Part shown: positions 17,596 through 59,699 of the stretch, piece after piece
How positions within the stretch are numbered: the first letter of the stretch is position 1
Layout of the letters: every line of letters starts with the position of its first letter
Position numbers and translations under genes: made by a program
DNA from: Torpedo marmorata
Taxonomy: Eukaryota
DNA length: 64,000 bases
Reading direction: 5' to 3'
Assembly: GCA_977017645.1 (NCBI GenBank)
Contig: OZ360221.1
Location: 195,796,001 to 195,860,000, forward strand
Notes under the pieces: generated by a model
Seen by the model: only the letters and a program-made list of their open reading frames with translations
Databases searched by the model: none
What the model was told of the DNA's origin: nothing

Positions 17596-19836
17596 ATGCT
17601 GAAAAGGCTTTTGATAGACTAGAGTGGAATTATTTATTTAAAGTATTGGAAAAATTTGGTTTTGGAACTACATTTATTAATTGGATTAAAACTATAAAAA
17701 AGAACCTTCCGCCAGATTGGTGACAAATGGACAAATTTCTTCAAAATTTTTGTTGACTAGGTCAACTAGACAAGGATGTCCTTTGTCGCCAGCATTGTTT
17801 ATTTTAGCAATAGAACCTTTGGCAGAATTAATTAGACAAGATATCAAGATTGTAGGTATTAAAGTCGGAAGAGAAGAGCATAAAATTAGTTTATTTGCAG
17901 ATGATGTATTGATATATATGACAAAACCTATTACTTTTTTAATACAATTGAATGTTTTATTGAAAGAATACGGGGAGATATCTGGCTATAAGATTAATTC
18001 TGATAAAAGTGAAATTATGGCATTGACACAAGGGGATTATAGTAAATGTAAAGAAATTACACAATTTAAATGGTTAAAGGAAGGAATTAAATATTTGGGA
18101 ATAAAGACTGATACAAAATTAGTTAATTTATATAAATTAAATTATATACCATTATTTATGAAAATTAAAAAAGATTTGGAAAGTTGGAAGGATTTACCTA
18201 TAACTTTAATAGGAAGGGTAAATTGTAATAAAATAAATGTATTTCCAAGAATTCAATATCTTTTTCAATCAATTCCTTATGAAATTTCTCAGAAATTCTT
18301 TAAAGATTTAAATTTAATTATTAAGAAGTTTTTGTGGAAAGGAAAGTTGGCTAGAGTAGGTATGCAGAAATTAACTTGGAATTATGAATTGGGTGGTTTA
18401 CAACTTCCTAATTTTCAAAATTATTATAAAGCAGCTCAATTAAAATTTATTAATGAAATGATTGATTCAGGAAAATCTTCTGGTTGGATTAGAATATAAT
18501 TAAATAATATAGGAGAAGATTTGAAAGAAGAAGTTATTTATAAATGGAATTCTAAATTAGTACTAACAAGAGGGAAAAATTCTCCTATTTTTAAACATTT
18601 GTTAGAAATATGGAATAGAGAGGATAGGGAGATAGGAGGGAAAGGGTTAATTTCTCGAAGAATGCCTTTATATCAAAATAAACTTATTCCATTTACTGTT
18701 GATAATCAATTTTTTAAAATTTGGTTTCAAAAGGGAATTAAGAAAATAAATGATTGTTTTGAAGCTAGTAAATTTATTACTTTTCAGAGAATGAAAGAAA
18801 AGTTTAATGTATTAAATAATACACTTTTTGCTTATTATCAAATCAGAGCATTTTTAGTTGAAAGGTTGGGTTATAGTTTGACTTTACCAAGTCAAAGTGA
18901 ACTGGAATTATTAGTTATTAATGGAGGTGTAAATAAATTTATTTCTCAAATGTATAGATTATTACAGAGAAAAATGCCTAAAGTAGGAATTCACAAATCA
19001 AGATTATAATGGGAATCAGATTCGAATGTAACAATAGATGAAGAACATTGGAAAGAATTATGTAAATTAAATATGACAAAGATTATTAATGTCAGATATA
19101 CACTAGTGCAATATAATTTTTTTCATCAATTATATTTAACACCTAAAAAATTAAAGAAATTTAATCCGACATTATCTGGTTTATGTTTTAGATGTAATAA
19201 AGAGGAAGGTTCTTTTGTACATTCTACATGGCTTTGTCCAAAGATATATGATTTTTGGTTGAAAGTTAAAAAGTTTTTAGATAAAGTATTAAGAATTACA
19301 CTCCCAATGGATCCTATGATATTTTTATTTGGAGATATTAAAAGAATTAGTACCAAGATGAAATTAAATATGTATCAAATAGAATTTTTGCGAATTGCTT
19401 TAGCTGTTTCTAAGAAATGTATTGCTATTACATGGAAATCTGATGTAGATTTAGGGTTAGATAGATGGCATGCAGAACTTCGTTCAGCTATACCACTTGA
19501 AAAAATTACTTATAATTTACGTAATAAATATCATTTCTTTTTGAAAATATGGAGCCCATATATAAAAACTGTTGGTTTAAGGATTTGAAGATCTCTGGAT
19601 ATCAGATCTGACTGGTGAACCTATTCTCCACAATAAAATTAGTTTATAGTTGTTCTTTTTTTAGATTGACATTCTCTTTATTTTATCTTTTTCTTTCTTT
19701 CTTTTCTATTTTATTAGATTAGTAGGGGTGGGAGGGTTAGGGAGGGGAGAAAATGTATCACATGTATTTTGATAATTTTGCATTTTATACAGTGTATTGT
19801 GTGATTTAAAAATTTTAAATAAAATATAAAAAAAAA
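17596..19836 (+). mobile_element. L1-clade LINE, 5'-truncated, with 17-bp TSD
   Basis: DAEKAFD, TRQGCPLSP, FADD, CFRC...H..W.C. Poly(A) tail. TSD ggtaaagaactattggg at 17579-17595 and 19837-19853. Several stops and frameshifts. Confidence 0.95.
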
Positions 19837-20601
19837 GGTAAAGAACTATTGGGGCAGTAAGCTCTCAGCAGTAAGTGCTAGACTTGGAGTAGTCTTATAC
19901 AGCGAGTATAGCTCAAAAACTACATTTTAAGTGGAAATTCTGGGGGTCGTCTTATACACCTAGTTGCCTTATACGCCGACATATATGGTACCTAATTTCG
20001 AAAGGGCTGGGTAGAATGGACGTGGAGTGACATTTTCAGTAGTGGGAGTGTCTGGAGCAGAGGGCACAGCATCAGAAGAAAAGGATGTCACTTTAGAACA
20101 GAGATGAGAAGAAATTTCTTCAGCCCACGGCAGTGAATCTGTGGAACTCGTTGTGGAGGCTAAATCATTGGGTAGATTTAAAACGGAGATTGATAGATTA
20201 TTGATGAGTAAGGACATCAAAGGCTATGCGGAGAAGGCAGGAGGATGGGGTTGAGAAGAAAAATACATCAGCCCTAATTCAAATAGTGACCCTCCTATGT
20301 CTTATGTCCTTATGGTGTTCTATGTTAATAATTTGAATCGCAGACACCTATGTTAAATTTTTACAAAAAAAACTGACCTTGTGTAATTTAAGGTTCCAAC
20401 CACTGAAAGTAATGAGTTTCTGCACAAACTCTTCAATCAATTATTGTCAGTAACTTGCTTCGGTACATTTTCACATAACTGCCGTATGCATTTTTCAATC
20501 TTTCAATGTTTTATTTAACGGTTTAAAAAAATTAATATTTCAGGATGAGCAACTTCATGCCTTGTTCATTCACAATTCACCTAATTTTTATTGATTCATA
20601 C

Positions 20602-20753: not shown

Positions 20754-20978
20754 TGTGGTGGAACGCGGTACTGCGGGCATGTCCGGGCATGTCCTCACTG
20801 GCTCACTGGGCTAACCTGTAGCCCCTCCCCATTACATCCCCTAATAAAGGCTGAGAGCCCTAGTCTCCCCCCCTTATACCTGCCTTGGACGTGAGCCAGC
20901 AGCATGCTCGAACTTTCTGATCAATAAAGCCTTTGATCACTTTCTTCGTGTCTGCGAGTGGTCATTGATCGCGCTACA
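20754..20978 (+). repeat. Gypsy 5' LTR
   Basis: tgtggtggaac...gatcgcgctaca, with AATAAA at 20923-20928. Confidence 0.95.
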
Positions 20979-21411
20979 ATTTATTGATCAGAATTTTAAA
21001 GTGCCATGGAGAAGGCAATTAGACTGGAGAAGCTGGAGATCGATCCAAAGGAACCAGAGGCCTCCGTAAAGTTCTATATGTGGCTACACTGTTTGAAGGC
21101 CTACCTGAGGCGCCACAATATCACAACCAACCCGGATAAGTACGATCTGCTCTTCGCAGCGGTGGGCCACAGAGCGTACTAAATTATCCGAGACTGCACC
21201 GAATATGAAGAGGCAATGGCTCTACTTCGACAACAATACGGAGCCCCAGTGAACGCCATGTACGCACGCTTCCAGCTGGGCTCACGACGCCAGGGTCCCG
21301 GTGAGTCGGTCGACGAGTTCGTGAGGGCCATGCGGGAGCTGGGACGAGCCTGCGGGTGCCGGGACGTGAGTGCGGCGCTCTACCAGGAGGAGCTCATCCG
21401 CGATGGGCTAG

Positions 21412-24400
21412 TCAGAATCAGAATCAGAATTTATTGTCATGAACAAGTCATGAAATTCGGTGTTTTGCGGCAGCATCATAGTGCAATTAACATTCATATT
21501 AACCATCTTACGACATTACTATAAAAAATTATAAACAATAGTGCATGAAAAGTAAGGCAGTGTCTTTGGTTCATTGATTATTCAGGAATCTGATGGCAGC
21601 GGGGAAGAAGCAGTCCTTGTGCCGTTGAGTGCTCGTCTTTAGGCTCCTGTACCTTTTTCCCGATGGAAGCAGAGTGAAGAGGGCATGGCCTGGATGGTGG
21701 GGGTCTTTGAGGATAGAGGCTGCTTTTTTAAGACACCGCCTCATGTAGATGTCCTCAATGGAGTGAAGCTTTGTGCCTGTGATGTCACAGGCCAAGTTAA
21801 CAACCCTCTGGAGTTTACTCTTGTCCTGGGAGTTGGCGTCTCCATACCAGGCAGTGATGCAACCAGCCAGAATGCTCTCCACGGTACACCTGTAGAAGTT
21901 TACGAGAGTCTTTGGTGACATACCAAATCTCCGCAGACACCTCACAAAGTATAGCCGCTGACGAGCCTTCTTTGTGATTGCATCAACGTGGATGCTCCAG
22001 GACAGATCCTTGGAGATGTTGACACCCAGGAATTTGAAGTTCTTGACCCTCTCCACTACTGAGCCCTCGATGAGGACTGGGTCGTGTTCCCCTGACTTCC
22101 TCCTGAAGTCCACAATCATCTCCTTGGTTTTGCTGACGTTGAGCTCAAGGTTGTTGCCATTACACCATTCAACGAGCTGATCTATCTCCCTCCTGCACGC
22201 TTCCTCATTGCCGATTGTGATTCTGCCGACAACTGTGGTGTCATCGGCAAACTTATAGATGGCATTGGAATTGTGCCTGGCCACACAGTCATGGGTGTAT
22301 AACGAGTAGAGCAGTGGACTAAGCACGCATCCTTGGGGTGCGCCTGTGTTGATAATCAGTGAGGAGGAGACGTTGTTTCCAATTTATACTGACTGTGGTC
22401 TTCCGATGAGAAAGTCAAGGATCCAGTTGCAGAGTGGGGTACAGAGGCCTAGAGTTTGTAGCTTCTTGACCAGCACTGAGGGAATAATGGTATTGAAGGC
22501 CGAGCTGTAGTCGATGAAGAGCAGCCGTATGTATGAATTGCTGTTTTCGAGGTGATCCAGAGCTGAGTGGAGAGCCAGCGATATTGCATCTGCTCTGGAG
22601 CGATTGTGACGATAGGCGAATTGCAGTGGGTCCAGATCTTTGCTTAGGTATGTGTTAATTCTGGCCATGACCAGCCTCTCAAAGTATTTCATCACAGTAG
22701 AAGTTAGTGCTACTGGGCAGTAGTCGTTGAGGCGTCCCACACTACTCTTCTTGGGTACCGGGATGTTTGATGCCCTTTTGAAGCAGGTGGGAACCTCTGA
22801 CTGCCGTAATGAGAGGTTGAAAATATCCGTGAACACTCCGGCTAGCTGGTTGGCGCAGATTTTCAGTACCCTGCCAGTTACGCCGTCAGGGCCTGACGCC
22901 TTGCGAGGGTTCACCCTCTTGTTTTTTTTTGTTTTTTTTTTGTTTTTTTAAATTATTTTATTTAAACTTTTAAATCACAAAATACATAAGATAAAATATA
23001 AAATTATCAAAATACATGTGATATATTTTCACACCCCCACCCCCCCACCCTCCCTCCCCTCCCCAACCCCCCCATCCCCACTAATCTAATAAAAAATAAA
23101 AATAAAAATTAATGTATAATAGAAAAAAGAAAGAAAAGAATAGAAAGAAAAGAATAGAATGAGGGGAATACCTTCTAAACTAATTCTATTATGGAGGTCA
23201 AGTGTGCCAGCAGATCTGATATCTAGAGATCTTCAAATCCTTAAACCCACAGCTCTCATATATGGACTCCAAATTTTCAAGAAAAAATGATATTTATTAC
23301 GTAAATTATAAGTAATTTTTTCCAGTGGTATACACGAACGGAGTTCTGCATGCCATCTTTCTAATCCTAAATCTAAGTCAGATTTCCAAGTAATAGCAAT
23401 GCATTTTTTTGAAACAGCTAAAGCAATTCGCAAAAATTCTACTTGAAACATATTTAATTTCTTTTTAATACTAAATTTTTTAATATCTCCAAATAAAAAT
23501 AACATAGGATCCATTGGAAATGCAATATTAAATACTTTATCTAAAAAATTTTTAACTTTCAACCAAAAATCTTGAATCTTTAGACAAAACCATGTAGAAT
23601 GAACAAAAGAACCTTCCTCTCTATTGCATCTAAAACATAAGCCTGATAATGTCGGATTAAATTTCTTAAATTTTTTAGGTGTTAAATATAATTGATAAAA
23701 AAAATTATATCGTACTAGTCTATATCTAACATTGATAATCTTCGTCATACTTAACTTACATAAATCTTTCCAATGATTTTCATCTATATTTACATTTAAA
23801 TCTAATTCCCATTTTAATCTTGATTTATGCAATCCTATTTTAGGCATTTTCTTCTGAAACAATTTATACATTTGAGAAATAAATTTAATAATATCTCCAT
23901 TAGTAACTAATAATTCTAATTCATTTTGTCTTGGTAAAATCAAAGCATAACCTAATTTCTCAGTCAAAAAAGCTTTAACTTGATAATAAGCTAAAAATGT
24001 ATTATCTGGTATATTAAATTTATCTTTCATTCTTTGAAACATAATAAATTTTCCAGCTTCAAAAAAATCATTAATCTTCTTAATACCTTTTTGAAACCAA
24101 ATTTTAAGTAACTGATTATTAACAGTAAATGATATAAGTCCATTTTGATATAATGGCATATTTGAAGAAATTAATCCTCTTCCACCTATCTCTTTATCCG
24201 TCTTACCCCATAGTTTTATTTGAATCAAAAAATTCATTAACAAATTTTAATTGAGCTTCTTTATAATAATTTTGAAAATTAGGAAGTTGCAATCCACCCA
24301 TCTCATAATTCCAGGTTAACATTTCCATACTTACTCTTGCTAACTTTCCTTTCCATAAAAATTTCCTAATAATTAAATTTAAATCTTTAAAAATTTTTTG

Positions 24401-27003
24401 AGGAATTCCAAAAGGAATTGATTGGAAAAGATACTGAACTCTTGGAAAAATATTCATTTTAATACAATTTACCCTTCCCATTAAAGTTATGGGTAAATCT
24501 TTCCAATTCTCTAAATCTTTCTTTATTTTCACAAATAATGGTAGATAATTTAATTTATATAAATTTTCCAATTTTGTATCAACCTTAACCCCCAAATATT
24601 TAATTCCTTCTTTAGCCCATTTAAATTGTGTAATTTCTTTACATCTAGTATAATCACCTTGAGATAAAGCCATTATTTCACTTTTATCAGAATTAATTTT
24701 ATATCCAGATATCTCACCATATTCTCTTAATATAATAGATAGTTGTTGAAGTGATATAATAGATTTTGTCATATATATCAATACATCATCTGCAAACAAA
24801 CTAATCTTATGTTCTTCCATACCAACTTTAATACCCACTATTTTAGGATCTTTTCTAACTAATTCAGCCAAGGGTTCTATCGCCAAAACAAATAAAGCTG
24901 GTGACAGGGGACATCCCTGTCTCGTAGAACGTGTCAAAGAAAATTTTGGCGATATTTGTCCATTTGTAATTACTTTAGCTGATGGTTCTTTATATATAGT
25001 TTTAATCCAATTTATAAATGTATTTCCAAAACCAAATTTTTCTAATACCTTAAGTAAAAAAATCCATTCTAATCTATCAAAAGCCTTTTCAGCGTCTAAT
25101 GTTACAACTAATGGTAAATCTTGTTTCTTTTTATGCAAACTAATTAAACTAATTAATCTAGCTATATTATCCTTTGAATATCTATTTTTAATAAAACCAG
25201 CTTGGTCTATATGTATCAAATCTGGCAAATATTTAGCCATTCTGTTTGCTAAAATTTTTGCCATTATTTTATAATCTACATTTAATAATGAAATAGGTCT
25301 ATATGATTCAGTTTTTAATACATCTCTATCCTTCTTTGGTATAACTGTAATTATAGCATTTAAGAATGTTTTCGGTAATGAATGAGTTTCCGTAATTTGA
25401 TCTAGTACTTCCATATATGGAGGTATCAATAAATCTTTAAATTCTTTATAAAATTCTGATGAAAACCCGTCATCACCCGGAGATTTACCACTCTTCAGCG
25501 AAGAAAAAACTTCACTAACTTCCCTCATTGTGAAAGGCAAATCTAAAGAGTCTCTACTCCGAATATTCAATTTAGGTAATATGATTTTAGATAGGAATCT
25601 ATTAATTTTAGAATCATCTTGGTCAATCTGCGATTTATATAAATTCTGATAATAATCTTTAAAAGATTCATTTATCTCTTGAGGTTTATGTTATTTCTCC
25701 AGTATTTTTCTTCCTTATAGCATTTATAGTTTTAGAAACTTGTTCTTTTTTCAATTGCCATGCCAAAACCTTATGTGCTCTTTCTCCTAATTCATAATAT
25801 CTTTGTTTAGTTTTCTCAATTAATTTTTCCATTCTATATGTTTGTAACAAATTATAATGTAATTTCTTCCCTATTAAACGATTTCTTTTTTGAATTGATC
25901 TATTTCTCTGTAAGTCCTTCTCCATAAGTTCAATTTCCTTCTCAAGTTTTTCTCATTCCTTAAGATAATCTTTCTTAATTTTAACTGAATAGCTTATTAT
26001 TAGACCCCTTAAATAAGCTTTTAAAGCTTCCCACACTATAAATTTATCATTAATAGAATTAACATTTATTCGTAAAAATTCCTGAATTTCTCTTCTTATA
26101 TATTCACAAAAATCTTTCCTTTTTAATAACGACGAATCAAATCTCCAATTATATATAGTTTTTTCTTTTAGGGTTCACCCTCTTGAATGATGTTCTGACG
26201 TCGCCCTCAGAGACAGATATCACAGGGTCCTCAGCCTTTTCAGGGATTCTAGTATGCACTGTTTTGTTCTTCTTCTCAAAGCGGGCATAGAAGGTGTTCA
26301 GCTCATCGGGTAGTGAAGCATCACAGCCGTCTATAGTGTTCGCCCTCGCTTTGTAGGCTGTAATGGCCTGCACTCCCTGCCATAGCTGGCGTGTATCTGT
26401 CTCTGTCTCTAGCTTCCTCCGGAATTGCCATTTTGCTTCAGAGATGGCCTTCCGCAGGTCGTGCCTGGACTTCTTGTAAAGATCCCTGTCCCTGGCCTTA
26501 AACGCCCTTGTTCTCGTCCTCAGCAGGTTGCAAATTCTCTGATTCATCCAGAGCTTCTGGTTGGGGAACACCCGGTATTTGCGCGTGGGCACACACTCAT
26601 CCATGCAGGTCTTGATGAAGTCGGTGACACCTGTTGCATCTTCATTTAGGTCTATGGCTGAGTGCTTGAATATGTTCCAGTCCACCAATTCAAAGCAGTC
26701 CTGCAGACGATCCTCCGCCCCCCTCGACCATACTTTCGCCGTCCTCACCACTGGTGCTGTGGTCTTCAGTCTCTGCTTGTACGCCGGGAGTAGAAGTACA
26801 GCCAGGTGATCAGACTTGCCGAAGTGCGGTCGTAGTATGGCTCGGTATGCGTTCTTCACGGTGGTGTAGCAGTGGTTGAGTGTGTTCCCCTGGTCTCGCA
26901 TGTGACGTGTTGGTGGTAGTTTGTCAGTGACTTCTTCAGATTGACCTGATTGAAGTCTCCCACAATGATCGGGAAGACATCAGGATGTGCTGTCTCATGG
27001 CTG
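21412..27003 (-). mobile_element. Rex1/Babar LINE inserted in Gypsy gag, split by an L1
   Basis: APE (GDFN, SDH) in 26149-27003 and RT in 21571-22914 ([12 protein letters not shown]). (TTCTGA)n tail at 21412-21429. gag reads ELIRD|...|FVAG across the insertion. Confidence 0.95.
22922..26169 (-). mobile_element. L1-clade LINE inserted in Rex1, with 16-bp TSD
   Basis: ORF2 fragments 25686-25925, 24203-25570 and 23233-24243. Poly(A) tail. TSD agggttcaccctcttg at 22906-22921 and 26170-26185. Confidence 0.96.
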
Positions 27004-30000
27004 TTTGTTGCGGGCTTCCGCTCCCAGCACATAAGGGAGCAACTCCTGGAGGAAGGAGATCGGTCCCTCCAGGTAGTGGTGCAGATGGCCCGAGCGATGG
27101 AGACGACCCAAAAGAACGCAGAGGCCTACTCAGCGGGCCACGTGGCCACCAGGTGGGGAGAACGGGCGGCGCCATCTTGGGACTCGGGGCCCCTGACTGC
27201 AGCGGCCACCGCTGACCACGCGAGGTGCAACTACTGCGGCCAAAGTAAACACCCGCGGAAGTATTGTCCGGCCCGTAGCGCGACCTGCTCAAACTGCCAG
27301 AGGAAAGGACACTACACCAGGGTATGTCGCTCCAAGCCCCACTCCAGCAGTGCTGCGTATGGACCGCGACTCTCCTCGCCATCTTGGACCCACCTACTTC
27401 CGCCATCATTTCCGGTTGCCGAAAAACGAGCTTCCGGAACAGGGGCGCAACAAAGAGGTCTGACGTCACTTCCGGCTTCTTCTCCGGACTCGACCGCATG
27501 CGATCCATGGGGGCGGCCATCTTCACGATCTCCCGGGCGGCCATCTTGGCGGCAGCCACTCCGAAATAGCAGCAGCGACTCGGTCAGTGAGCTGACGCTG
27601 GCGTCCATCGTGCTGGACCAAGGGAGACCACACCAGCTGGGGCGATCGATGATGGACGTTGAGGTAAACGGTCACTCCACTGGCTGCCTGTTCGACATGG
27701 GAATCACTGAGAGCTTCATACACCCGGGCACTGCCGAGCGTTATTCCCTGACCGTGTCCCCAGCCAAAGGAAAGGTAGCACTAGCCTCCAAATCCCTCTC
27801 TGCGGAAATCCGTGGAAGCTGCACTGTGACCCTAACCGTGGGGGGCACCAATTATAAGAATTTTAAACTGCTGGTAATGCCCCACCTATGCGCACCCGTC
27901 ATATTGGGGCTAGATTTCCAGTGCCAGTTTAAAGGGGTGCAGATGCAGTTTGACGGCCCCCACCCCCCACTCACCGTCATTAATAATCCTGACCTGCGGA
28001 CTAACCACCCTCTGGGTCCCTCCGCCCCTGCTGTTCCAAAACCTCACCCCGGGCTGTAAACCAATTGTCACTAAGAGCAGGCGATACAGCCCCGGGGACA
28101 GAAAATTCATTAAAACGGAAGTGGAGCAGCTGCAGGAGGAGGGCATTATAGAGCCAAGCAATAGTCCCTGTAGTGGTGGTGAAGAGTGGGGAGAAACATC
28201 GGATGGTCATTAATTACAGTCAGACCATCACCTTACTGGACACCTACCCTTTGCCCTGCATATCGGATAATGTAAATGAGATCGCCAAGTACAGGGTCTT
28301 CTCGACCATAGACCTAAAAGCGGCGTACCACCAAATCCCGATTCGCCAAAAAGACCGGCTGTACACGGCATTTGAGGCCAACGGCCGTCTCTACCATTTC
28401 CTGCGGGTCCCATTCGGCCTCACGAATGGGGTGTCAGTGTTCCAAAGGGAAATGGACCGCATGGTGGATGACAATAAGCTGAAGGCGACGTTTCCATACC
28501 TGGACAATCTCACTATCTGCGGCCATGACCAAAAGGAACATGACGAGAACCTGCAGAGGTTCCTGGCCACCGCAAAGGCACTCAATCTCACGTATAATGA
28601 GAAAAAGTGTGTCTTTAGCACCAAAAGGCTGGCAATCCTGGGGTACGTGGTGGAGCATGGGGCTATCGCCCCTGACCCTGAGCGTATGCGCCCCCTACTG
28701 GAATTACCCTTGCCACAGAACCCCAAGGCTTTAAAAAGGTGCCTGGGGCTCTTCTCCTATTATGTCCAGTGGATCCCTAACTATGCGGGCAAGGACCAAC
28801 CTCTAGTGAGAACCACTACTTTTCCCCCGTCGGCGGAGGCCCTTAAGGTTTTCGAGGGCATCAGAGGCGAGATTGCCAAGGTGGGAATGCACGCCATTGA
28901 TGAATCCGTCTCCTTCCAAGTGGAAAGTGATGCCTCTGACTTTGACCTGGCAGCCACGCTGAACCAAGCAGGCAGGCCAGTTGCATTTTTTTCCCGTACT
29001 CTCCAAGGCCCTGAACGCAGGCAGCGCATCACTGGAGGCACTACTTGGCCGGCAGACCATTCACCCTGCTGACAGACCAGAGAGCCATCATGTTCATGTT
29101 TAACAATAAACAGCGGGGTAAGATCAAAAATGACAAAATCATGAGGTGGAGAATTGAGCTGTCCACCTACAATTAATGAATATGGTACCGGCCGGGTAAG
29201 CTCAATGAGCCACCCGATGCCCTGTCCAGGGGAACCTGCGCCAGGGTGCAAGTTGATTGCCTCCAGGTCCTCCACGATAGCCTCTGCCATCCCGGGGTCA
29301 CTAGGCTCTACCATTTTGTGAGGGCCCGTAACCTCCCCTTCTCAGTAGGGGAGCTGACTCGCAATTGCCAGGTCTGTGCCGAATGCAAGCCTCAATTATA
29401 TAGACCGGATAGAGCCCAACTTATCAAAGCCACTTGCCCCTTCGAACGTCTCAGCATGGACTTCAAGGGGCCCCTCCCGTCCACGAATCGTTACTCCTAC
29501 TTCCTGAACATCATGGACGAGTACTCACGTTTCCCATTCGCCATCCCCTGTCTGGATATGACCACATCCACGGTCATTAAAGAACTCCGCTCAGTATTCA
29601 CTCTGTTCGGATACCCTAGTTTCGTTCATAGTGATCGGGGATCTGCCTTCATGAGTGAGGAGTTGCGGCAATACTTCCTTTCAAGGGGCATAGCTACGAG
29701 CAGAACCACCAGCTACAACCCCCGCGGGAATGGGCAGGTGGAAAGGGAGAATGGTACGATCTGGAGGGCAGTCCTTTTGGCCCTCAAGTCGAAAGGGATG
29801 CCCGTATCCCAATGGCAAGAGGTCCTCCCAGATGCGCTGCTTGCCACCACGTCCCTACTCTGCATGGCCACCAATGCTACACCCCATGAAAAATTGTTCT
29901 CCTTCCCTAGGAGATCGGCGTCAGGAACCACGCTGCCAGTCTGGCTGACGACCCCAGGGCCGGTGCTTCTTCAGAAGCACGTTAGGACTCATAAGGTGGA

Positions 30001-30478
30001 CCCACTGGTCGAGGAAGTGCATCTCTTGCATGCCAGTATGCGCTGGTAAGGTACCCGGACGGACGAGACATATACAGTGTCCATCTGGCGCGAGCGGGGG
30101 CCCCGGCACGAGAGGTGCACCCGATATCCCCAGTCAGTGACCAGTCGGCCCCAGGGATCACCCTGACAAATGAAATAGGGATCCCACCCCCAAGACGGCC
30201 CCCCGAGTGTCCCCCTTCACTTGTGTGTTCCCCCCCCCACTCTTACCAACAAATTCACCGCCCCCTACGGACCCGGGACACACAGAAACAGTTCAGCCCT
30301 CCGACAGCCAGCAGGTCGAACACGACACCACTCAGCTAGATCCGAAGATACAGCCAGTACTTCGGAGATCCCAGCGCCAAAGAAAACCGCCAGAGCGGCT
30401 GAACCTATGAGACTATAAACTGTATGGACATTGTCTCGCTTCACCCCGCCGGACTTCATTAAAAAAAGGAGGGGTGAA

Positions 30479-30702
30479 TGTGGTGGAACACGGTACTGCG
30501 GGTATGTCCGGGCATGTCACTGGGCTAACCTGTAGCCCCTCCCCATTACATCCCCTAATAAAGGCTGAGAGCCCGAGTCTCCTCCCCTTATACCTGCTTT
30601 GGACGTGAGCCAGCACCATGTTAGAGGCATGCTCGAACATTCTGATCAATAAAGCCTTTGATCACTTTCTTCGTGTCTGCGAGTGGTCATTGATCACGCT
30701 AC
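30479..30702 (+). repeat. Gypsy 3' LTR
   Basis: Direct repeat of 20754-20978 with two short indels and some substitutions, preceded by the PPT. Confidence 0.95.
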
Positions 30703-30939
30703 TCTGTGCTGAGTTATGGTGCTTGAGCATTATTGAAGTAGGCTGAGGCATCTCACAACCCAAGCAATCGTTTACACAGTGCCTTTTCAGCTGCAGCAAG
30801 TGAGAATTTCAGTGCAAATGCACATTGTATAATGTATATGACAATAAACTCAATATCATTATTTATGTCATGATCATTGCTATACCTTAATACCTTCACC
30901 TTTGATGGGATAGCTTTACTGAGTTTTCATTGTAGGCTA

Positions 30940-31790
30940 TAATTCAAGATCAAAATTCAATTTATTGTCATGTAATAAAAATAGTGCCATATTACACAAA
31001 ATAGCCTTTTGTCTGCTGTAAGGCAGACAGATTCGCCATTGGCAGAAATTGACTGAAGTGCCTCTTGCCCAGAGAAAGAGAAGGAAAAGTGAGTTCCCCC
31101 CAGTGTCCATGCATTTGCCTCCAGCACTCCCGCAGCCTCCGCAGCCACACAGAGTCCAGTCCAAACCATCGGCAACCTGGGTTTCAGATCCGAACCTCCG
31201 ATATGATTACAAACCCTTCAGCGCCCTCGGCACCCTCTGGCATCCTGGTTCCGATACCTGGTTCCCCTTCAGCCAGTTTCGAGCCAGTCTCCAGCAGTCC
31301 GCAGCCTGGTGCGAGTCCCTTGACCGCAGTCTCCAGCAGCCCACAACCTGCGTGCGTTCCTTGTCTCGAGTCAACAACAGCCCGTCGCCTGTGTGGGTCC
31401 TTCAGCTGCAGAACCCCCTCACTGGTGCGCTGCCGCGGTCACCGTCCCGTGGGTCGTCTCCTCTGCTTCTCCTTCTCAAATGGGTGTTGGTCTCCCAGTT
31501 TTCTGGTGTCCTGCGCCAGTCCTCCGCTTCCATGGAGTCTGCAACTCCTCGTGGCTACTGCTGATCATAGGTGCCGCCATCTTGGGCGCAGACCCCGCAG
31601 TCATGGGATTTTAAATAAAACTACTGTCGGCTCCTTTAACAGGCTGTTCAAAGCCTGTACGGAGCTGACGGCAGTCGGACTGGGTGGTTGGACCCCGCGG
31701 GAGCGCAGTGTCTCCACTCCCTGCTCTCCGTGGGCCCGCACTAGCGGCAGCGCTGCCATTACAGTAGCTCCGGCAGCGCCGCCATTTTCC
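30940..31790 (-). mobile_element. GC-rich ~850-bp non-autonomous retroposon, copy 1
   Basis: Colinear with 45064-45895, 50350-51177 and 55895-56735. The minus strand starts AAAATGGCGGC and ends gacaataaa(ttgaat)n. Confidence 0.85.
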
Positions 31791-44292: not shown

Positions 44293-45895
44293 TGATTTCA
44301 AATTCATGATTCCTTTATTGTCATGTAATACAGGTACATAATCTTTTATCCGAAACCCTTGGGACCAGACACTTTTCAGAATTCAGAATTTTTCGGATAA
44401 TAGAATAATAGTAACGGCGGTACGTTAAGTAATTGCGCTGATTTCAGATTCGCGCAAAACAAAGACACACTCCAACTAGAAGGGTCTTTGGATGGGGGGG
44501 CGCTGGACGGTGAGGGGGGGGGTGGCAACGGCGCTGGACGTGGGTGGGGGGTGGTAAATGAAGTGAGATAAAGATAGACCATAAAATTACTAGCATACTT
44601 TTTATTTTTAAGTAAAACATACAGTAAAACTTCAAACATTAACATCACTGTCACTGTAAAACTTCAACAACTTTTTCTGCTTTTTAAGTCATATATGGTG
44701 GTCGTTCCCATACCATAATCTTCAGTAAGACGCTGCACAGATACACCACAATCAAGCTTCTGCAATAACTCTACTTTCTGCGCTATCGATAATGACAGAC
44801 GCTTCCTTTTCTGCTTCTCTCTGTTACCCATAGAGGACTCTGCAGCTCTTTTTGACATTTTCACAGTCTTCAAAGTCTGTGAACAGCAGAGGCATGTCTG
44901 ACTGGTAGGAGCACTGAGACACGGCGCTGGACGGGGGTGGGTTGTGTCGGGTCATGTTTGGCGCCAAACGTGAGCTTTGGTGTGCAGACGACATCTTTGG
45001 AAAAAATGTTCGGTTTTCGGAGGTTTCGGTTTTCAGAATTTTGGATAAAACATTATGTACCTGTAGTCCCGAACGTAATATTTCACGAAATGGCCATCTG
45101 CCTGCCAAAAGCCAGACAAAGAGTCGCCATTAGTGTTGCCTGGTGCCCCTTACAGTACAAGAGAAAGAGGAGCAAAAGAGAGTCCATTCAGTCACCAAGT
45201 GTCCATGGATTCTCCTCCAGCGCTCCCGCAGCCTCGGCAGCTGCACAAACTCCCGTTCGATTCATCGGCAACCCGAGCTCCAGATCCAAACCTCTGACAC
45301 AATCAGGAAGCCTTCAGCACCCAAGGCCTTTTGGGAGCCCTTCTTTCCCTCAGCACCCTCTCGAATCACGGATCCAATATCTGGTTCCCATGAACCAGTC
45401 TCCAGCAGCCCGAAGCCCATGTGAGTCCCCCGACCACAAGTCACACGCAGCCTGTGTCACTCCTTTAATTGCTGAGTCCCTCGCTGTTCTGCTACCATGA
45501 TCACCATCCGGTAGGGTCCTTCAGTCGCTGAGACCTCGCTGATCTGCCGCCATAGTCACTGTCCTGGAGGGTCGTCTCCTTTGCTTTTCCTTCTCAACGA
45601 GGGGTGTTCTCCGTTTCTAGTGCCCTGCGCCTGTCCGCTGCTCCATGGAGTCTACAATTCCTCGTGGCTGCTGCCCAGCACAGGCGCTGCCATCTTGGGC
45701 ACAGACACGTGGTTGCAGGATTTTAGTTAAAAACAACGTCAGCTCCTTTAACAGGCCGTTTACCGTCTGTACGGATCCGCTGGCATTAGGACAATGCGTT
45801 TTGAACCCTATGGAGCATCGCTGTGTCTCCTCTCTCCCGGGTCCACACCAGAGACAACACGGTTATTACAGCAGCTACGATAGTGCCGCCATTTT
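44293..45895 (-). mobile_element. GC-rich retroposon, copy 2, split by a Tigger element
   Basis: Tail at 44293-44330, body at 45064-45895. Confidence 0.85.
44331..45063 (-). mobile_element. Tigger/pogo-family internally deleted DNA transposon
   Basis: TIRs caggtacataatcttttatccgaaa / tttggataaaacattatgtacctg with TA on both sides. CENP-B/Jerky-like HTH KRKRLSLSIAQKVELLQKLDCGVSVQRLTEDYGMGTTTIYDLK at 44664-44873. Confidence 0.92.
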
Positions 45896-47371
45896 TTTTC
45901 TTCACAATGACATTACTGTGTTGGGTCCAGAAAAGATCCTCCGAGATAATGACTCCCAGGAATTTAAATTTGCTTAACTTCTCCACCTCTGCTCCCCCAA
46001 TGATCACTGGATCATACACCTCTGGTTTACCCTTTCTAAAGACCACAATCAGCTCCTTGGCTTTGAAGTCATTGAGTGCGAGGTTGTTGTTAGTACACCA
46101 TTCAGCCAAGTTTTCAATTTCTCTCCTGTAGGCTGACTCATCACCCCTTTTTATACAACCCACTACCATGGTATCATAAGCAAATTTGCAGATGGTGTTA
46201 TTGTTGAACCGAGCCACAGAGTCATAGGTGTAAAGCGAGTAGAGCAGGGGGCTAAGAATGCAGCCATCTGGTGCTTCGGTACTGATGGAGATTGTGGAGA
46301 TGTTCTTACCAATCCTCACTGAATGTGGTCTATAGGTGAGGAAATCCAGGATCCAATTACACAATGGGGTATTAAGTCCCAGGTCTTGGAGTTTGCTGAT
46401 CAGTTTTGAGGGGATGATGGTGTTGAATGCTGAATTGTAGTCGATAAAGCGCATCCTGATGTATGCATCTTTGCTGTCCAAGTGTTCCAGGGTTTTGTGT
46501 AGAGCCAGTGAGATGGCATCTGCTGTAGACCTGTTGCTGCAGTAGGCAAATTGGAATGGAACAATGTCGCTGCTCAAACAGGAGCTAATATGCTTCATCG
46601 TCAGCCTCTCAAAATACCTCATCACTGTGGATGTGAGTGTCACTGGTCAGTAGTCATTTTGGCAGGTTACCACACTCTTCTTGGGTACAGGTACAATTGA
46701 AGCCTGTTTGGAACAGGTGGGTCCCACGCCCTGTCAGAGTGAATTGTTGAAGATATCCATGAAAACATTGGCCAGTTAGTCAGCCCAGGTTTTCAGTTCT
46801 CAGCCGGGTACTCTGTACGGACCGGATGCTTTCCTTGGATTCACTCTCCTGAAGGCAGCCTGCACGTTATCCTCAGATACTGACAGTGGAGGATCATGAA
46901 GGAACGTGGTGATGTGCAGTGGTTCTTCCTTGATCTTATGGTCAAATCGGGCATAGAAGACATTGAGCTCATCTGGGAATGGAGCTTTGGTGTTTCCTAA
47001 AGCACCGGATTTGGTTTTGTCGCAGGTTATGTCATTTAGGCCCTGCCACAGCTGTCCTTCATTGTTTCCATTCTTGTCTGGAATCTCCACTTCACACGGG
47101 TGATGGCTTTTGTAGGTCATACCTGCTCCTTGTGTCGTATTCTGGTTCTCTGGACTTAAATGCCTGTGATTTGGCTCTCACCAGGTTCTGGGTTTCATTC
47201 TTCATCCAGGGATTCTGTTTGGGGAAAACCCTGAACGATATCTACAATTATTTGACTTGGTGAAGTCAGGATGGCTGTAATGTACTCAACTGTAATGTAC
47301 TCAACTGAAAGGTGAAGTGATGTGAAAGTGAGCTTCAATGGGATGATGTAGGAGATCAAGGACAGAGAGTA

Positions 47372-48900: not shown

Positions 48901-48994
48901 GGCTCTATCAGTAAATATTTGGACATTCATTGTGCAATCTGTTCCTGCCTCCAGCTGCATACCTAGCCCCAAATCTGGCTGCCTTCTGGCCTCC

Positions 48995-49400
48995 TTCCAG
49001 CCAATACCTTGTCCCATTCCTGGCAACATTCCAGCCAATACCTTGTCCCATTCCTGGCAACATTCCAGCCAATACCTTGTCCCATTCCTGGCAACATTCC
49101 AGCCAATACCTTGTCCCATTCCTGGCAACATTCCAGCCAATACCTTGTCCCATTCCTGGCAACATTCCAGCCAATACCTTGTCCCATTCCTGGCAACATT
49201 CCAGCCAATACCTTGTCCCATTCCTGGCAACATTCCAGCCAATACCTTGTCCCATTCCTGGCAACATTCCAGCCAATACCTGGTCCGATTCCTAGCCACA
49301 TTCCGGACAATTCCTGGCCCCATCCCTGGCTAATACCTGGTCCCATCGCTGCCCACAATCTGGGCCATGCACCTGGCCCCATCCCTGGCCACATTCTGGT
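48995..49400. repeat. Minisatellite, 34-bp unit ttccagccaataccttgtcccattcctggcaaca; 8 identical copies then degenerate
   Basis: Unit starts recur every 34 bp from 48995 to 49267. Confidence 0.97.
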
Positions 49401-49754
49401 CATAAAGCTGATCCAATTCCTACCTCATGAGAAAAATGAGAGCATAAAAGCAATAGTAGGCCACTCAGCCCCTCAAGACTGTGCCATTATTCTTTAGGAT
49501 TATGGCTCATCTGCTTCAGGCCTTTTCCTCTTCTGTGCCAGTTTCCCATAACCCTTAATTCCCTGATCTTTTAAAAATATACTTATTTCCTCTTTAAACC
49601 CTAACCCTAATCCCCACTGATCTATGCTTCATAACACTCTGGGATAGAGAATTTTGGTTCAATTACTACCCTCTGCATGAAGTTCCAACATACTTCCATT
49701 TTAAATGATTGTTGCCTAATCTTGCCATTATCTTCTCAACATCTACGTTGTCAT

Positions 49755-50349: not shown

Positions 50350-51177
50350 AGATTCAAGATTCAAGATTCAATTTATTGTCATAGTAATAAAACACTGAAA
50401 TATTATATGACAATATTACAAGGCAGACAGATTCGCCATCGGCAGAAATTGCCTAAGCGCCTCTAACATTCCTTACAGTCAGAGAAAGAGAAGCAAATGA
50501 GAGTCCCCCGAGAGTCACCGAGTGTCCGTAGATTCGCCTCCAGCGCTTCTGCAGCCTCTGCAGCCACACTGAGTCCAGTCCAAACGATCGGCAACCCGAA
50601 CTCCAGATCCGAACCTCCGACACGGTCAGGAACCCTTCGGCGCCCTCGGCACCCCCTCGCATCCCGGTTCCGATACCTGGTACTTCTCCAGCCAGTTTGA
50701 GCCGGTCTCCAGTAGTCCGCAGTCCGGCGCGAGTCTCCTGACGGCAGTCTCCAGCAGCCCACAGCCTCCGCGGGTTACTCGCCAGCAGCCCGCCGCATGC
50801 ACTCGTCCTTCAGCCTCAGAGCCCCTCACTGGTACGCCGCCGTGGTCACCGTCCCGTGGTTCGTCTCCTCTGCTTCTCCTTCTCAGGCGGGATGGGGAGG
50901 GGGTGATCTTTCCGTCCTCTGGTGCCCTGCTCCAGTCCTCCGCTTCCCCGGAGTCTGCAGCCCCTCGTGGCTGCTGCCGATTAATAGGCGCTGCCATCTT
51001 GGGCGCAGACCTGCGGCCGCGGGATCTCAAATAAAACCACCGTCGGCTCCCTCAACTGGCCGTTCAAAGCCCGTGCGTTGCCGACGGCAGTCAACTGGAC
51101 CCCGCGGGAGCGCTGCATCTCCGCTCCCTTGCTCCCCGCGGGTCCGCAGCAGCGGCAGCGCTTTAACCACCTTCCTG
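50350..51177 (-). mobile_element. GC-rich retroposon, copy 3 (most CpG-intact)
   Basis: Colinear with the other copies; (aagattc)n tail on the plus strand. Confidence 0.88.
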
Positions 51178-51296: not shown

Positions 51297-51905
51297 TCCC
51301 CTGGACCTGGCCAGTGCAGCCCTGGACCCTGGACCCGGCAAGTGCAGACCTGGACCCTGGACCCGGCCGGTGCAGCCCTGGACCCTGGACCCGTCCGGTG
51401 CAGCCATGGACCCTGGACCCGGCCAGTGCAGTCCTGGACCCTGGACCCAGCCAGTGCAGCCCTGGACCCGGCCAGTGCAGCCCTGGACCCAGCAGTGCAG
51501 CCCTGGACACTGGACCCGGCTGGTGCAGCCTTGGACCCTGGACCCAGCCAGTGCAGCCCTGGACCCTGGACCCGTCCGGTGCAGCCCTGGACCCTGAACC
51601 CGGCCAGTGCAGTCCTGGACCCTGGACCCGGCTGGTGCAGCCCTGGACCCTGGACCCATCCGGTGCAGCCCTGGACCCTGGACCCGGCTGGTGCAGCCCT
51701 GGACCCTGGACCCATCCGGTGCAGTCCTGGACCCTGGACCCGGCTGGTGCAGCCCTGGACCCTGGACCCATCCGGTGCAGCCCTGGACCTGGCCAGTGCA
51801 GCCTTGGACCCTGGACCCAGCCAGAGCGGCCCTGGACCCTGGACCCGGCTGGTGCAGCACTGGACCCTGGACCCGTCTGGTGCAGCCCTGGACCCAGCCA
51901 GTGTA
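51297..51905. repeat. GC-rich minisatellite, ~28-bp unit ccctggaccctggacccggccagtgcag built from 7-mers
   Basis: About 22 variant units, directly visible. Confidence 0.97.
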
Positions 51906-51939
51906 CCCCTCACCCTCCGCATGCCCCCCTAGTTTTGAC

Positions 51940-55790: not shown

Positions 55791-55894
55791 TCTAAGAGAT
55801 TGGGGATATAGGGGATCAGGGTTTTCAAACAGTGAAGCGGGCTGCATTAACCATGTTGGTAGAAAAGGCTGGAGATCTGTGGATTCAGGAAATT

Positions 55895-56735
55895 AAGATT
55901 CAAGATTTATTTATTGTCATGTAATAAAAATAGTGCAATATTACAAGCAATTTGCTTTAGTCTGCCGTAAGGCAGACAGATTCGCTATCAGCAGAAATTG
56001 CCTGAAGCGCCTTACAGTCAGAGAAAGAGAAGCAAAAGGGAGTCCCCTCAGAGTCACCGAGTGTCCGTGGATTAGCCTCTTGCAGTCCCCGCAGCCACAC
56101 AGAGTCCAATCCAAACATCAGCAGCCCGAGCTCCAGATCTGAATCTCTGACATGATCAGGAAACCTTCAGCACCCTTGGCACCCTCTTGCATCCCGATTC
56201 CAATGCCTGGTACCACTTCAGCCAGTCTCCAGCCAGTCTCCAGCAGTCCGCAGCCCGGTGTGAATCCTTTTACCGCAGTCGCCAGCAGCCCGCAGCCTGC
56301 GCGGGTTCCTCGCCTCGAGCCTGCTGCCTGTGTGTTCTTCAGCCGCAGAACCCCTCACTGGTCCCCCGTGGTCACCCTCCTGGGTCTTGTCTCCTTTGCT
56401 TCTCCTTCTCAAATGGGGGGGGGGGGCGTGGTGTTCTCCCCGTTTTCTGTTGCCCTGAGCCAGTCCTCCGTTTTCCCAGAGTCTGCAACCACTCGTGGCT
56501 GCTGCTGATCATAGACGCCACTATCTTGGGCGCAGACAGCACAGTTACAGAATCTTAAAATAAAACCACCGTTGTCTCCATTAACAGGCTGCTTAAAGCC
56601 TATGCAGAGCTGATAGCAGTTGGACTGAGTGGTTGGACCCCGCAGGAGCACTTTGTCTCTGCTCCATGCTCTCCGCGGATCCGCACCATCGACAGTGCTG
56701 TCCTTACCGCAGATCTGGCAGCGCCGCCATTTTTT
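55895..56735 (-). mobile_element. GC-rich retroposon, copy 4
   Basis: Colinear with the other copies; 5' end AAAATGGCGGCG. Confidence 0.88.
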
Positions 56736-59699
56736 TTAGGAGAGAAAGCAAGATGGGTGTAAACTGGGGGCTGAACTGGGTACTCAAGTTGCTTTAGGGC
56801 CAACAGTCATGTAGAGGAGAATATTTACAGACATTTAGGGCCAGATGTCTGCTTCAAGTGTAAAACAATTGATGTTTGTCTTTGCTTTGTGTGCTGGCTG
56901 GTCATTTCTGGTGTGAAACAAGGATGTTTCTAGCCTACCATTGGGGACATTTGGTGTCCACACTGCAACTGTTTAGTAAATCTGTTTGAAACAAAGTTGG
57001 CGTATCTGCCATTTGCAGCAAAATAATAAACTGTTATTGGTCTATTATTAACGTGACAAAAATGACAGCTAAATTATATATCTTTGAATGACTTTCTTCG
57101 TTTTGAATATTGTCAATTTCAAAATAGCTTTCAATTTTTTAAGAAAGCTAAAAGATGGGCATCTCAATAATTGGCATTATACATCTTAATTGAACCTTAG
57201 GCAAATACGGCTTTGTTTCTAAACTAATCCTATTGCCACGATTCTATTCCCCAGCATCCAACCTTTCACCTCTTAGTTTCCCCATTGCAATATTCTTTTG
57301 TTTGCAGTTAAGCGCAATGCATTATAGGATGATTCACTCGATTGCTGTTGAGAACAAACAAGCTGACAAATTCTATTAAAGGGGAGGCATATTTTCATTT
57401 AGAACTGCATAATTATTGATGGAAACACTGCAATTTGGAATTGTGCAATAACTTGAAAAGAGAGAAATGCAAAATTGTACAGAACTAAAAAATCCAAGGC
57501 ATGCTACATGAGGTGAATGGAATTGAAAAAGACTGCATGAAATGCCAATAATTATATTATGGATGAGCTAAATGATGCATCAATTATGTCTTTTAATGTT
57601 ATTAATTAAAAAATTTTGCACATGGATGAATTGATGTTTTGCACAATTTTGACACCTGAAATAGATGTCAGTGTGTTAGAACTCAGTGGATTTGGAATCA
57701 ATGCATAATTTCTGAAAAGGTTATCATTTACCTTGGCATTTACCAAGACGTTTTACTTCAATCCACTCCTGTCTCTGGCAGGATGCTTCTTTGACAAGGC
57801 AAGGACTATCATATGACTTTCCATTAGATGCACACACTGGATTGTAGTTGAATCTGCTGCAGTCTATATTACACACACACCTAATAAAATCAAAACATTC
57901 GCATTGTACAGAGTTGTCAAGTACTTAAGTAAATTACATAATCAGGAAACCTATAACATTATTGCCACATATGCCACTGCTGTGACCCATTGAAAGCAAA
58001 AAATGTTGTAGTTATCCAAAATTAAAAATACATACTGCAAAGCATTTAATTTTAAACATGATCAATTATTGCTGATGTTTAATGTGTGAAGGATTGAGTC
58101 AATAGAAACATCACACAGTCTTCAATGATTTATTTAAAATCATACTTGAGATTCTCCTATGAGCAACATAGCCTCCACAGGGACAATATGTATTGCCTAT
58201 GCATCGGATTTTCTTTCACAAGCTTGCCCCTTTGAAAGCCCTTTTAAAGTGGTTTTGGGTACAGGTTTATATGACTTGGCAGCCACTATTTTACAGACTC
58301 CCTTTAATTTTAAGCCTCAGTTGCACTACATAAAGACTCGTGTTTATTCAGCTTTGCCAATTTTACTGCCTTCTACACCATTGCATATTAGACACTAATG
58401 ATCCAATTGAATATAACTGATGCAGTTATCCTCCAGCTGCACAGAAGTCTTTTTGCATAATATACAAGTGTCTACAGTTTGCTTTCATTGAACTTTTCAC
58501 TATTCAAGTTAATTCTGGTAAACATCAGTATCAGAAACAGATGAATGATGCAAACAAATTCGCTCAGAGTTTAATATGTGATTTATTCTTTGCAGAATGC
58601 ACAATAAATTTTGTTTGTACAAAACAATAAATATTCTGTTTTTTTCTGGTAAAGGGGATAGCTAACTGATATTTCCAACTTGCATTAGTAAAAGGGCAAG
58701 TCTAAAATTCTACTTTTGTAATCAAATTCTTTATAAGAATAAATAAAGTGGAAAAACATTTTTATATTGGAGGATTATCTCAAGTTTGAAGTTTGAATTA
58801 AGTTTGAAGGAGCTCAGCTTGAACATTTATTAATGGTCCATCCTCATAACTAGCTCTATCCATTTGTTAATGTTTACATTTTTGGAGGCAATTCTCATTT
58901 TATGAAGGCCTTGAATTTCCACAGTTTTGTCGAAGATGGGAGTGAGTGGGGACCTGTGTGCCTTCTCAATTCATCCACTGGTCTGTCTGACTACAGCTTT
59001 CTCAACAACTGATGAGCCCACTCAGTCCTCTCGGATCTTTCTCCCAGTTGCCTCTTTTCATGCTCCAAGTTTGGTTTCTCGTTCCTTCGTAGCAGGAGTA
59101 ACACCATTCACATTATTGCATCATTGTTTTGTACATGTGAAATAACTAGCATTAATAGCACTGTGTTCCACATCTACTGAATGGTGAATCTCAATGTAGA
59201 CATTGATCGGACAACTCCCTCTGTAGATAGGAGGAGAAGTGGGAAATGATTATCCATCCTGACCTCTCTGGTTAAAATCAGGTCCACTCAGGTCTTTCCG
59301 AGGATGTTACTTATGTGTGGAAAAATGGCATTCTGTTTTGTACCACTGCCCTGACTTCACTGCATGGGTGTTGTTTACCTTTATGCATTTGTAAATTCCA
59401 TGTTCCTCCTTTCTATTTTTCATTGATTATCTCCCTTCATTTTCATTGTGTCACAAATTTTTTACTTTTTTCTCCAAATTTTTCAGAGAACTTTCATTGA
59501 TTTTGGTGGAAATTAAACCAGTTAAAAATGCGAGTCAGGTGTTAAAGACGACGGTTGTCTTTCATTTGGTAAACATTGGAAGAGTCCACAATGATGTTGT
59601 TCCATGTATTACTTAGTGCAATGGCTAGTGCACACATATTTCTGTAAACTGCTGGCTAATTTCTCCTGCTTGCTTGTTCACTTGGTGTACCTATTAATA

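Follow-up and report, generated by a model that had tools for sequence, protein, structure and literature searches.

A clade of animal Gypsy retrotransposons whose primer-binding site complements its own LTR is a candidate for Tf1-style self-priming

In retrotransposons of the Ty3/Gypsy type, a tRNA primer normally binds next to the 5' LTR. Here, we describe a Gypsy element in the electric ray Torpedo marmorata in which this position is taken by the exact complement of a segment of the element's own LTR, and this segment ends on the poly(A) signal. The element lies in a stretch of 64,000 nucleotides that was analysed as a whole and is hereafter referred to as the window. The same arrangement, written in different letters, is found in four other families of an animal clade that lacks a chromodomain. 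Sequence comparison makes it very likely that these elements are self-primed in some form, by a 5' arm or by a 3' or trans arm. The reading that we favour, with a probability of about 0.6, is self-priming in the manner of Tf1, by folding back of the 5' end of the transcript. The features of the element in the window are as follows.

20754 to 20978, forward strand: 5' LTR of 225 bp, TG...CA, recognised by direct repetition with 30479 to 30703 and by loose contig ends
20843 to 20848, forward strand: upstream AATAAA in the LTR, outside the duplex
20915 to 20928, forward strand: LTR arm and predicted self-primer, with the poly(A) signal AATAAA (20923 to 20928) as its 3' end
20934 to 20964, forward strand: inner stem-loop from folding, 20934 to 20942 with 20956 to 20964, which would juxtapose the arm and the primer site
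20980 to 20993, forward strand: primer-binding site position, TTTATTGATCAGAA, without TGG and exactly complementary to the LTR arm
21006 to 21413, forward strand: 5' part of gag with one in-frame stop, by similarity to the relatives L037 to L042
21414 to 27009, reverse strand: nest of non-LTR retrotransposon insertions that interrupts gag and is foreign to the Gypsy element (Pfam RVT_1 and ALKBH8_N on minus-strand ORFs)
27010 to 28056, forward strand: 3' part of gag, with two CCHC knuckles (27226 to 27327), and aspartic protease (27655 to 27918)
28152 to 29069, forward strand: reverse transcriptase (RT) and the start of RNase H, with YLDN at 28497 to 28508, frameshifted relative to its neighbours
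29180 to 30410, forward strand: integrase, with its core at 29180 to 30046 and a broken C-terminal part that ends LRRSQRQRKPPERLNL, without a chromodomain
30360 to 30401, forward strand: integrase tail LRRSQRQRKPPERL
30461 to 30478, forward strand: polypurine tract
30479 to 30703, forward strand: 3' LTR, which ends CT and carries the second copy of the arm at 30640 to 30653

The element has the LTRs, the polypurine tract, the PR-RT-RH-IN gene order and the Gypsy-type RT by which Ty3/Gypsy elements are defined, and its best solved relative is the RT of Ty3. Without the 5.6-kb LINE nest in gag, it measures about 4.35 kb. The two LTRs align with 206 matches, 8 mismatches and two 11-nt indels. Stops and frameshifts are found in the window copy, which is a dead, broken Gypsy copy. 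The family to which it belongs is abundant. In the public run X1, the LTR limits at 20754 and 20978 are backed by about 100-120 contigs that run into unrelated flanks, with about 100 distinct LTR flanks, and because of this abundance the family must have been primed by some means. A Troyka-type identity was considered on account of the 3-bp CTG target duplication in the window, a length that we take to be a Troyka-type trait, and was ruled out by the 5-bp duplications of L039 and L078.

The insertions in gag and the surroundings of the element have a composition of their own. In the LINE nest, an L1/Tx1-like element (about 22930 to 26150) interrupts a minus-strand element that encodes an ALKBH8_N-type domain and has short repeats as its 3' tail. 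A relative of the L1/Tx1-like insert sits inverted at 18000 to 19845. A GC-rich repeat of 850 bp is present in four diverged copies, 65-78% alike, at 30941 to 31788, 45078 to 45899, 50352 to 51162 and 55891 to 56737, one of which is located directly 3' of the Gypsy element. Tandem-repeat arrays occupy 48986 to 49422 and 51299 to 51910, and in the latter each strand contains long, repetitive open frames.

In the window, one spacer base (20979) separates the CA end of the 5' LTR from the 14-nt site, and segment 20980 to 20993 is the exact reverse complement of segment 20915 to 20928. This self-complement had been reported in the original prediction, made from the letters of the window, and we find it to be exact and at the same coordinates. 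The prediction also described a pairing of 15 out of 15 with the 3' LTR. Next to the arm copy at 30640 to 30653, a 15th pair is indeed present at 30639, which looks incidental because this base is not the same in the two LTRs and varies from one related family to the next. With up to one mismatch allowed, the 14-mer occurs in the 64-kb window only as the two arm copies and the primer site (0.06 expected). The longest complement between the LTR and the post-LTR sequence is 14 nt, while the best among 20,000 mononucleotide shuffles of the LTR is 11 and none of the 20,000 reaches 14. When sliding windows were moved over the actual sequence of 64 kb, a complement of at least 14 nt was reached at 15 out of about 12,750 positions. 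The region folds as a 14-bp outer duplex around an inner stem with a z value of -2.75, and 2 of 200 shuffles were equally good. The inner stem, which was also part of the prediction, was found at the positions given above and, unlike the outer duplex, includes G-U pairs. Rfam and ARAGORN gave no match on the window, and no tRNA was detected in it.

Variation in public runs was also recorded along the duplex. Within the primer site, position 20986, whose partner in the arm is 20922, has a G-to-A variant that makes up 17-38% of the depth in four runs. Contigs of organism E, which belongs to the window's own group, have 18 listed differences, all located between the arms, and the similarity stops just upstream of 20915. 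The table of these differences evidently hides positions near its ends, as the 20986 variant is missing from it, and it is no proof that the arms are invariant. In the inner stem, pairing is kept by the changes at 20936, 20937 and 20957 that are common in organism E, and is disrupted by the minor changes at 20958 and 20960.

Six relatives, L037 to L042, were obtained by scanning prokaryote assemblies, where they evidently lie in animal DNA mixed into the bacterial sequence, and eight further candidates were taken from the same contig sets. The bacterial-titled assemblies G001 and G002, whose loci are L039 to L041 and L073 to L112, are rich in animal DNA, with 133 and 146 Gypsy RT matches, respectively. 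L037 and L038 are whole circular retrotransposon contigs with a single LTR inside bacterial bins, and their LTR limits were deduced from the polypurine tract and the terminal CA. The 5' junction is readable in 7 of the 14 loci of the clade, the unreadable ones being L041, L073, L074, L076, L077, L079 and L080. The TGG site is absent from the window element and from all seven readable relatives. The geometry of the window is repeated with different letters in five of these seven, which correspond to four families, since L039 and L040 form one family. The RT segments of the four families are 52-70% identical. In the five relatives, CA is followed by one base and then by 13, 14, 14, 10 and 14 bases, respectively, that are exactly complementary to an LTR arm. 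Each arm ends on a poly(A) hexamer, 23-50 nt before the end of the LTR. In L038 the hexamer is ATTAAA, and it is matched by a site that starts with TTTAAT.

When the window element and the five relatives are aligned, 81 of 84 positions are Watson-Crick pairs, none is G-U and 3 are mismatches, two of them in the decayed L040; the 84 aligned positions represent five independent families and not 84 independent events. The check by covariation that had been proposed with the original prediction came out in its favour, as complementarity is kept across families with more than one type of pair in 9 of the 14 columns. Shifted registers give only 2-7 pairs out of 14. Between families, the primer sites share 6-13 of 14 bases, and the site of the window matches the LTRs of other families over 6-8 nt only. 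The two marks of self-primed elements, the lack of TGG and a covarying LTR complement of at least 10 nt, are thus both present, with 14 nt in the window. The inner stems lack conservation from family to family, and those of L039 and L042 are weak. Two decayed relatives fall short of 10 nt under the offset rule, L078 with 9 nt and L075 with 5 nt; the LTRs of these two loci are 74% and 85% alike, and a degenerate match in the hexamer region can be seen by eye in both. L075 (G002:C56) is a basal sister of the clade, 38% identical, and has no TGG but a degenerate 9-nt match between the post-LTR sequence and the AATAAA region. Judged by this locus, the trait may date from deeper than the clade.

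The closest named proteins are from catshark, with 72% identity, and the hosts of other named relatives include rays, a tunicate, a sea cucumber, a mussel, corals, anemones, nematodes, a spider and a tapeworm. An exact-pattern scan of metagenomes returned 36 loci, at none of which were Gypsy genes present, and a search of viral contigs, with the single RT or with the alignment, returned no relatives.

As a control, 32 other Gypsy loci were taken from the same contig sets. Twenty of them, belonging to about 13 families, have a credible LTR pair, and the other 12 were dropped. In 17 of the 20, TGG is found 1-2 nt past the LTR, and two more have a degenerate form of the same site. The self-complement is at most 6 nt in 19 of the 20; control L104 has a 10-nt self-match, located within a stretch that is missing from its 3' LTR. 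An unrooted RT-RNase H tree of 55 rows was computed with LG+G4 and included 20 of the first 120 homologues. Partial loci (L041, L042, L074 and L076 to L080) and near-duplicates or tandem copies (L097, L104, L108 and L109) were left out of it. The five self-complementary rows and the 13 TGG rows are on opposite sides of a branch with 100/100 support, and the clade sits on a long branch of its own. Among the other loci, L085 (the + element) and L081, from a contig set that is apparently of invertebrate origin, are Gypsy elements of Gmr1 order in which the integrase precedes the RT and Gag has a SCAN domain.

The active-site motif of the RT is YLDN, with Asn in place of the second Asp, in L037 to L040 as in the window. 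The fourth position of the motif is N in 92 and D in 22 of the 120 listed homologues of RT length, and N in 85 and D in 33 of the 120 listed full-length homologues. Wherever the motif can be read in control elements, this position is D. The acidic residues of RNase H are present in the intact relatives L037 and L038. In Ty1, the same D-to-N change keeps the polymerase activity in vitro, but transposition is blocked in the absence of suppressors in RNase H (PMC2148107).

The original prediction stated that the element has no chromodomain, and this holds. No Chromo match was found in the window or in L037 and L038, whose integrases stop soon after the core; PF00385 is on record for none of the 120 full-length relatives listed; and a Chromo search of five contig sets, run without a positive control, gave none. 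By the chromodomain test, the clade is not a chromovirus. The two CCHC knuckles and the integrase tail that had been pointed out are likewise present in the window, and two knuckles are also found in L037, in L038 and in 66 of the 77 listed relatives longer than 1100 amino acids. Two CCHC knuckles and a short basic integrase tail are traits of the Mag lineage. The element shares these traits, and the clade further resembles the Mag lineage (A, B and C clades, SURL) and Cigr-1 in its animal hosts and its lack of a chromodomain. As a grouping, Mag-like is not established: an unnamed two-CCHC group primed through TGG (L098, L099 and L111) falls outside the present clade, and a sister relation between the two depends on the root in this tree of unnamed sequences. 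Cigr-1, an element of Ciona, is placed under Mag in a supplement of PMC6238403, and the present clade does have a relative in a tunicate. Motif searches in the supplements of PMC6238403 and PMC8556966, and in one file of PMC13524379, met with no sequences in these files.

Tf1-style self-priming would account for these observations in the following way. Transcription would start at the arm or just upstream of it. The 5' end would fold back with the help of the inner stem, and the arm would pair with the primer site. The RNA would then be cut just past AAUAAA, probably by the RT/RNase H of the element as in Tf1, and the 3'-OH freed in this manner would abut the end of the LTR with the polarity that is right for a primer. 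In the established retroviral mechanism, the LTR end is where minus-strand synthesis starts. A strong-stop DNA of 24-51 nt would jump to the 3' end via the stretch that separates AAUAAA from the poly(A) site. During plus-strand synthesis the primer would be copied into a new primer site, which would hold both strictly Watson-Crick; we infer that the absence of G-U pairs fits a primer copied into its site better than it fits selection on a helix. As a by-product, the duplex would mask the 5' poly(A) signal and leave the 3' one open. The fixed duplex length of about 14 bp would agree with the distance between the polymerase and RNase H sites in the RT of Ty1, which is given as 14-15 bases in PMC2148107. 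Against this reading stand the lack of a TATA-like box about 30 nt before the arm in all six LTRs, the variant at 20986, the two decayed relatives below 10 nt, the inner stems that differ among families, the different fold of L039 with a longer leader, the self-match of control L104 and the small number of relatives. By every sequence test at hand, the clade would work like Tf1. The self-priming in a non-chromoviral Gypsy lineage that was originally predicted is well supported at the level of sequence comparison, by the covariation in four other families, the tRNA-type controls and the lack of a chromodomain.

Self-priming could also proceed from the 3' copy of the arm, either in an RNA closed end to end or with the second RNA of a dimer. 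The cut past the 3' AAUAAA would then remove the tail, and the long RNA would be the primer. Covariation fits the 5' and the 3' arm equally. The arm is located upstream of the poly(A) site, so that it is at the 3' end of every full transcript whatever its start, and there is no promoter signature that places the start at the arm; the 5' arm, however, lies at a distance of only 24-51 nt, and the prediction is that it is the first to pair with the primer site. The sharp end of the 14-bp outer duplex and the point just upstream of 20915 at which conservation ends in organism E are as expected from a start at this point, and strand transfer from a 3' primer would be more complicated. We regard priming from the 3' arm as a serious possibility, but an unlikely one.

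The duplex may also affect the poly(A) signal. In HIV-1, a poly(A) hairpin within R-U5 masks AAUAAA at the 5' LTR by base-pairing, and priming is by tRNA-Lys3. The present elements resemble HIV-1 in the predicted masking of AAUAAA at the 5' LTR, and differ in that the hexamer would pair with the primer site itself. In 11 of 12 folds, the unpaired probability of the hexamer is 0.01-0.10 with the primer site, and it is 0.48-0.93 without the primer site; the value for accessibility in the 3' LTR of L042 was left out of this comparison. When 40 nt of upstream sequence are included, L039 adopts a different fold, in which the hexamer is unpaired with a probability of 0.56. It is plausible from these folds that hiding the 5' poly(A) signal is a second use of the duplex. 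A second poly(A)-type hexamer lies outside the duplex in the window (20843 to 20848), in L039 (3524), in L040 (3539) and in L038 (243), where it could act in the manner of a promoter or as another signal for the 3' end.

If masking in the manner of HIV-1 were the only function of the duplex, priming would be left to something else. The arm does end on the hexamer in 6 of 6 elements and masking is predicted by folding in the 5' context only, but the duplex occupies the very slot where the controls carry TGG, with no room for another primer. A structural helix should moreover allow G-U pairs and a variable length and offset, and G-U pairs are found at 0 of 84 positions. Occlusion alone leaves the geometry unaccounted for, and we consider it improbable as the whole explanation.

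It is still less probable that priming is done by a host RNA, such as a tRNA half, a tRNA fragment or another small RNA, and that the match to the LTR is secondary. Some Copia lineages are primed by tRNA halves (PMC6317226); in the present clade, the site differs from family to family and always tracks its own LTR, which would require a new matching host RNA each time. A chance inverted repeat, or a fold-back artefact in one decayed copy, would be helped by the palindromic TGATCA in the arm and by the fact that real genomic DNA yields more hairpins than shuffles, but it can practically be dismissed, as the geometry recurs in four other families with other letters and the junction is found in contigs of several public runs.

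Tf1-style self-priming, the reading retained here, has precedents. In Tf1, the transcript's first 11 bases pair with the primer-binding site, and RNase H makes its cut behind base 11 (PMC7175516). The available literature presents self-priming as shown for Tf1 and as inferred for Tf2, Tj1, fungal and vertebrate Tf1/sushi elements, plant Tcn1 and the Copia TAR lineage (PMC7175516, PMC4600332, PMC6317226, PMC6934838, PMC3601003, PMC5443660, PMC5006619). The present clade is similar to Tf1 and Tf2 of S. pombe, Tj1 of S. japonicus, the Tf1/sushi chromoviruses and the plant Tcn1 clade, as these are characterised in PMC7175516, PMC4600332 and PMC6317226, in being Ty3/Gypsy, in having no tRNA site, and in having a primer site complementary to the LTR with a stem-loop between the two. 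Unlike the Tf1/sushi group, it has neither a chromodomain nor a match of the Tf2-type SH3, and it has two CCHC knuckles, a size of about 4.1-4.4 kb and LTRs of 120-225 bp. Compared with Tf1, the duplex is 13-14 bp instead of 11, the poly(A) signal is part of the arm and YXDN is common; this comparison sets a clade known from its sequences, in a tree that holds no chromovirus RT, beside an element in which self-priming has been shown.

For the plant Ty1/copia elements TAR, Houba and Osr-1, self-priming is predicted from the same property, an LTR complement of at least 10 nt right past the 5' LTR (PMC6317226). These elements belong to another superfamily and another kingdom, which suggests that self-priming arose more than once. 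Our literature search found no published account of self-priming in a non-chromoviral animal Gypsy clade or of a primer site that overlaps a poly(A) signal; the original Tf1 papers, Simmen and Bird 2000, Repbase and GyDB might hold one.

A broader scenario can be offered tentatively. The tRNA primer may have been replaced, independently, by the element's own poly(A) signal in an old, animal-wide clade. The duplex would block 5' polyadenylation and would then be cut past AAUAAA, possibly with the 3' copy or a partner RNA, unlike in Tf1. Primer and site would evolve in concert, and the RT, with Asn in place of a catalytic Asp that is normally invariant, would perhaps be tuned to starting on an RNA duplex. 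We hold this combination of steps to be doubtful as a whole.

If self-priming of the clade is true, it would be another independent escape from the host tRNA, and hence from control by tRNA supply or by tRNA fragments, in a clade that ranges over sharks and rays, tunicates, echinoderms, molluscs, cnidarians, nematodes, spiders and flatworms. Priming would be coupled to the poly(A) signal, and the families would provide natural covarying substrates for the cutting of an RNA duplex by RT. The clade also supplies natural YXDN enzymes, though the same change blocks transposition of Ty1 (PMC2148107). Annotation pipelines that require a tRNA site will miss or mislabel such abundant elements.
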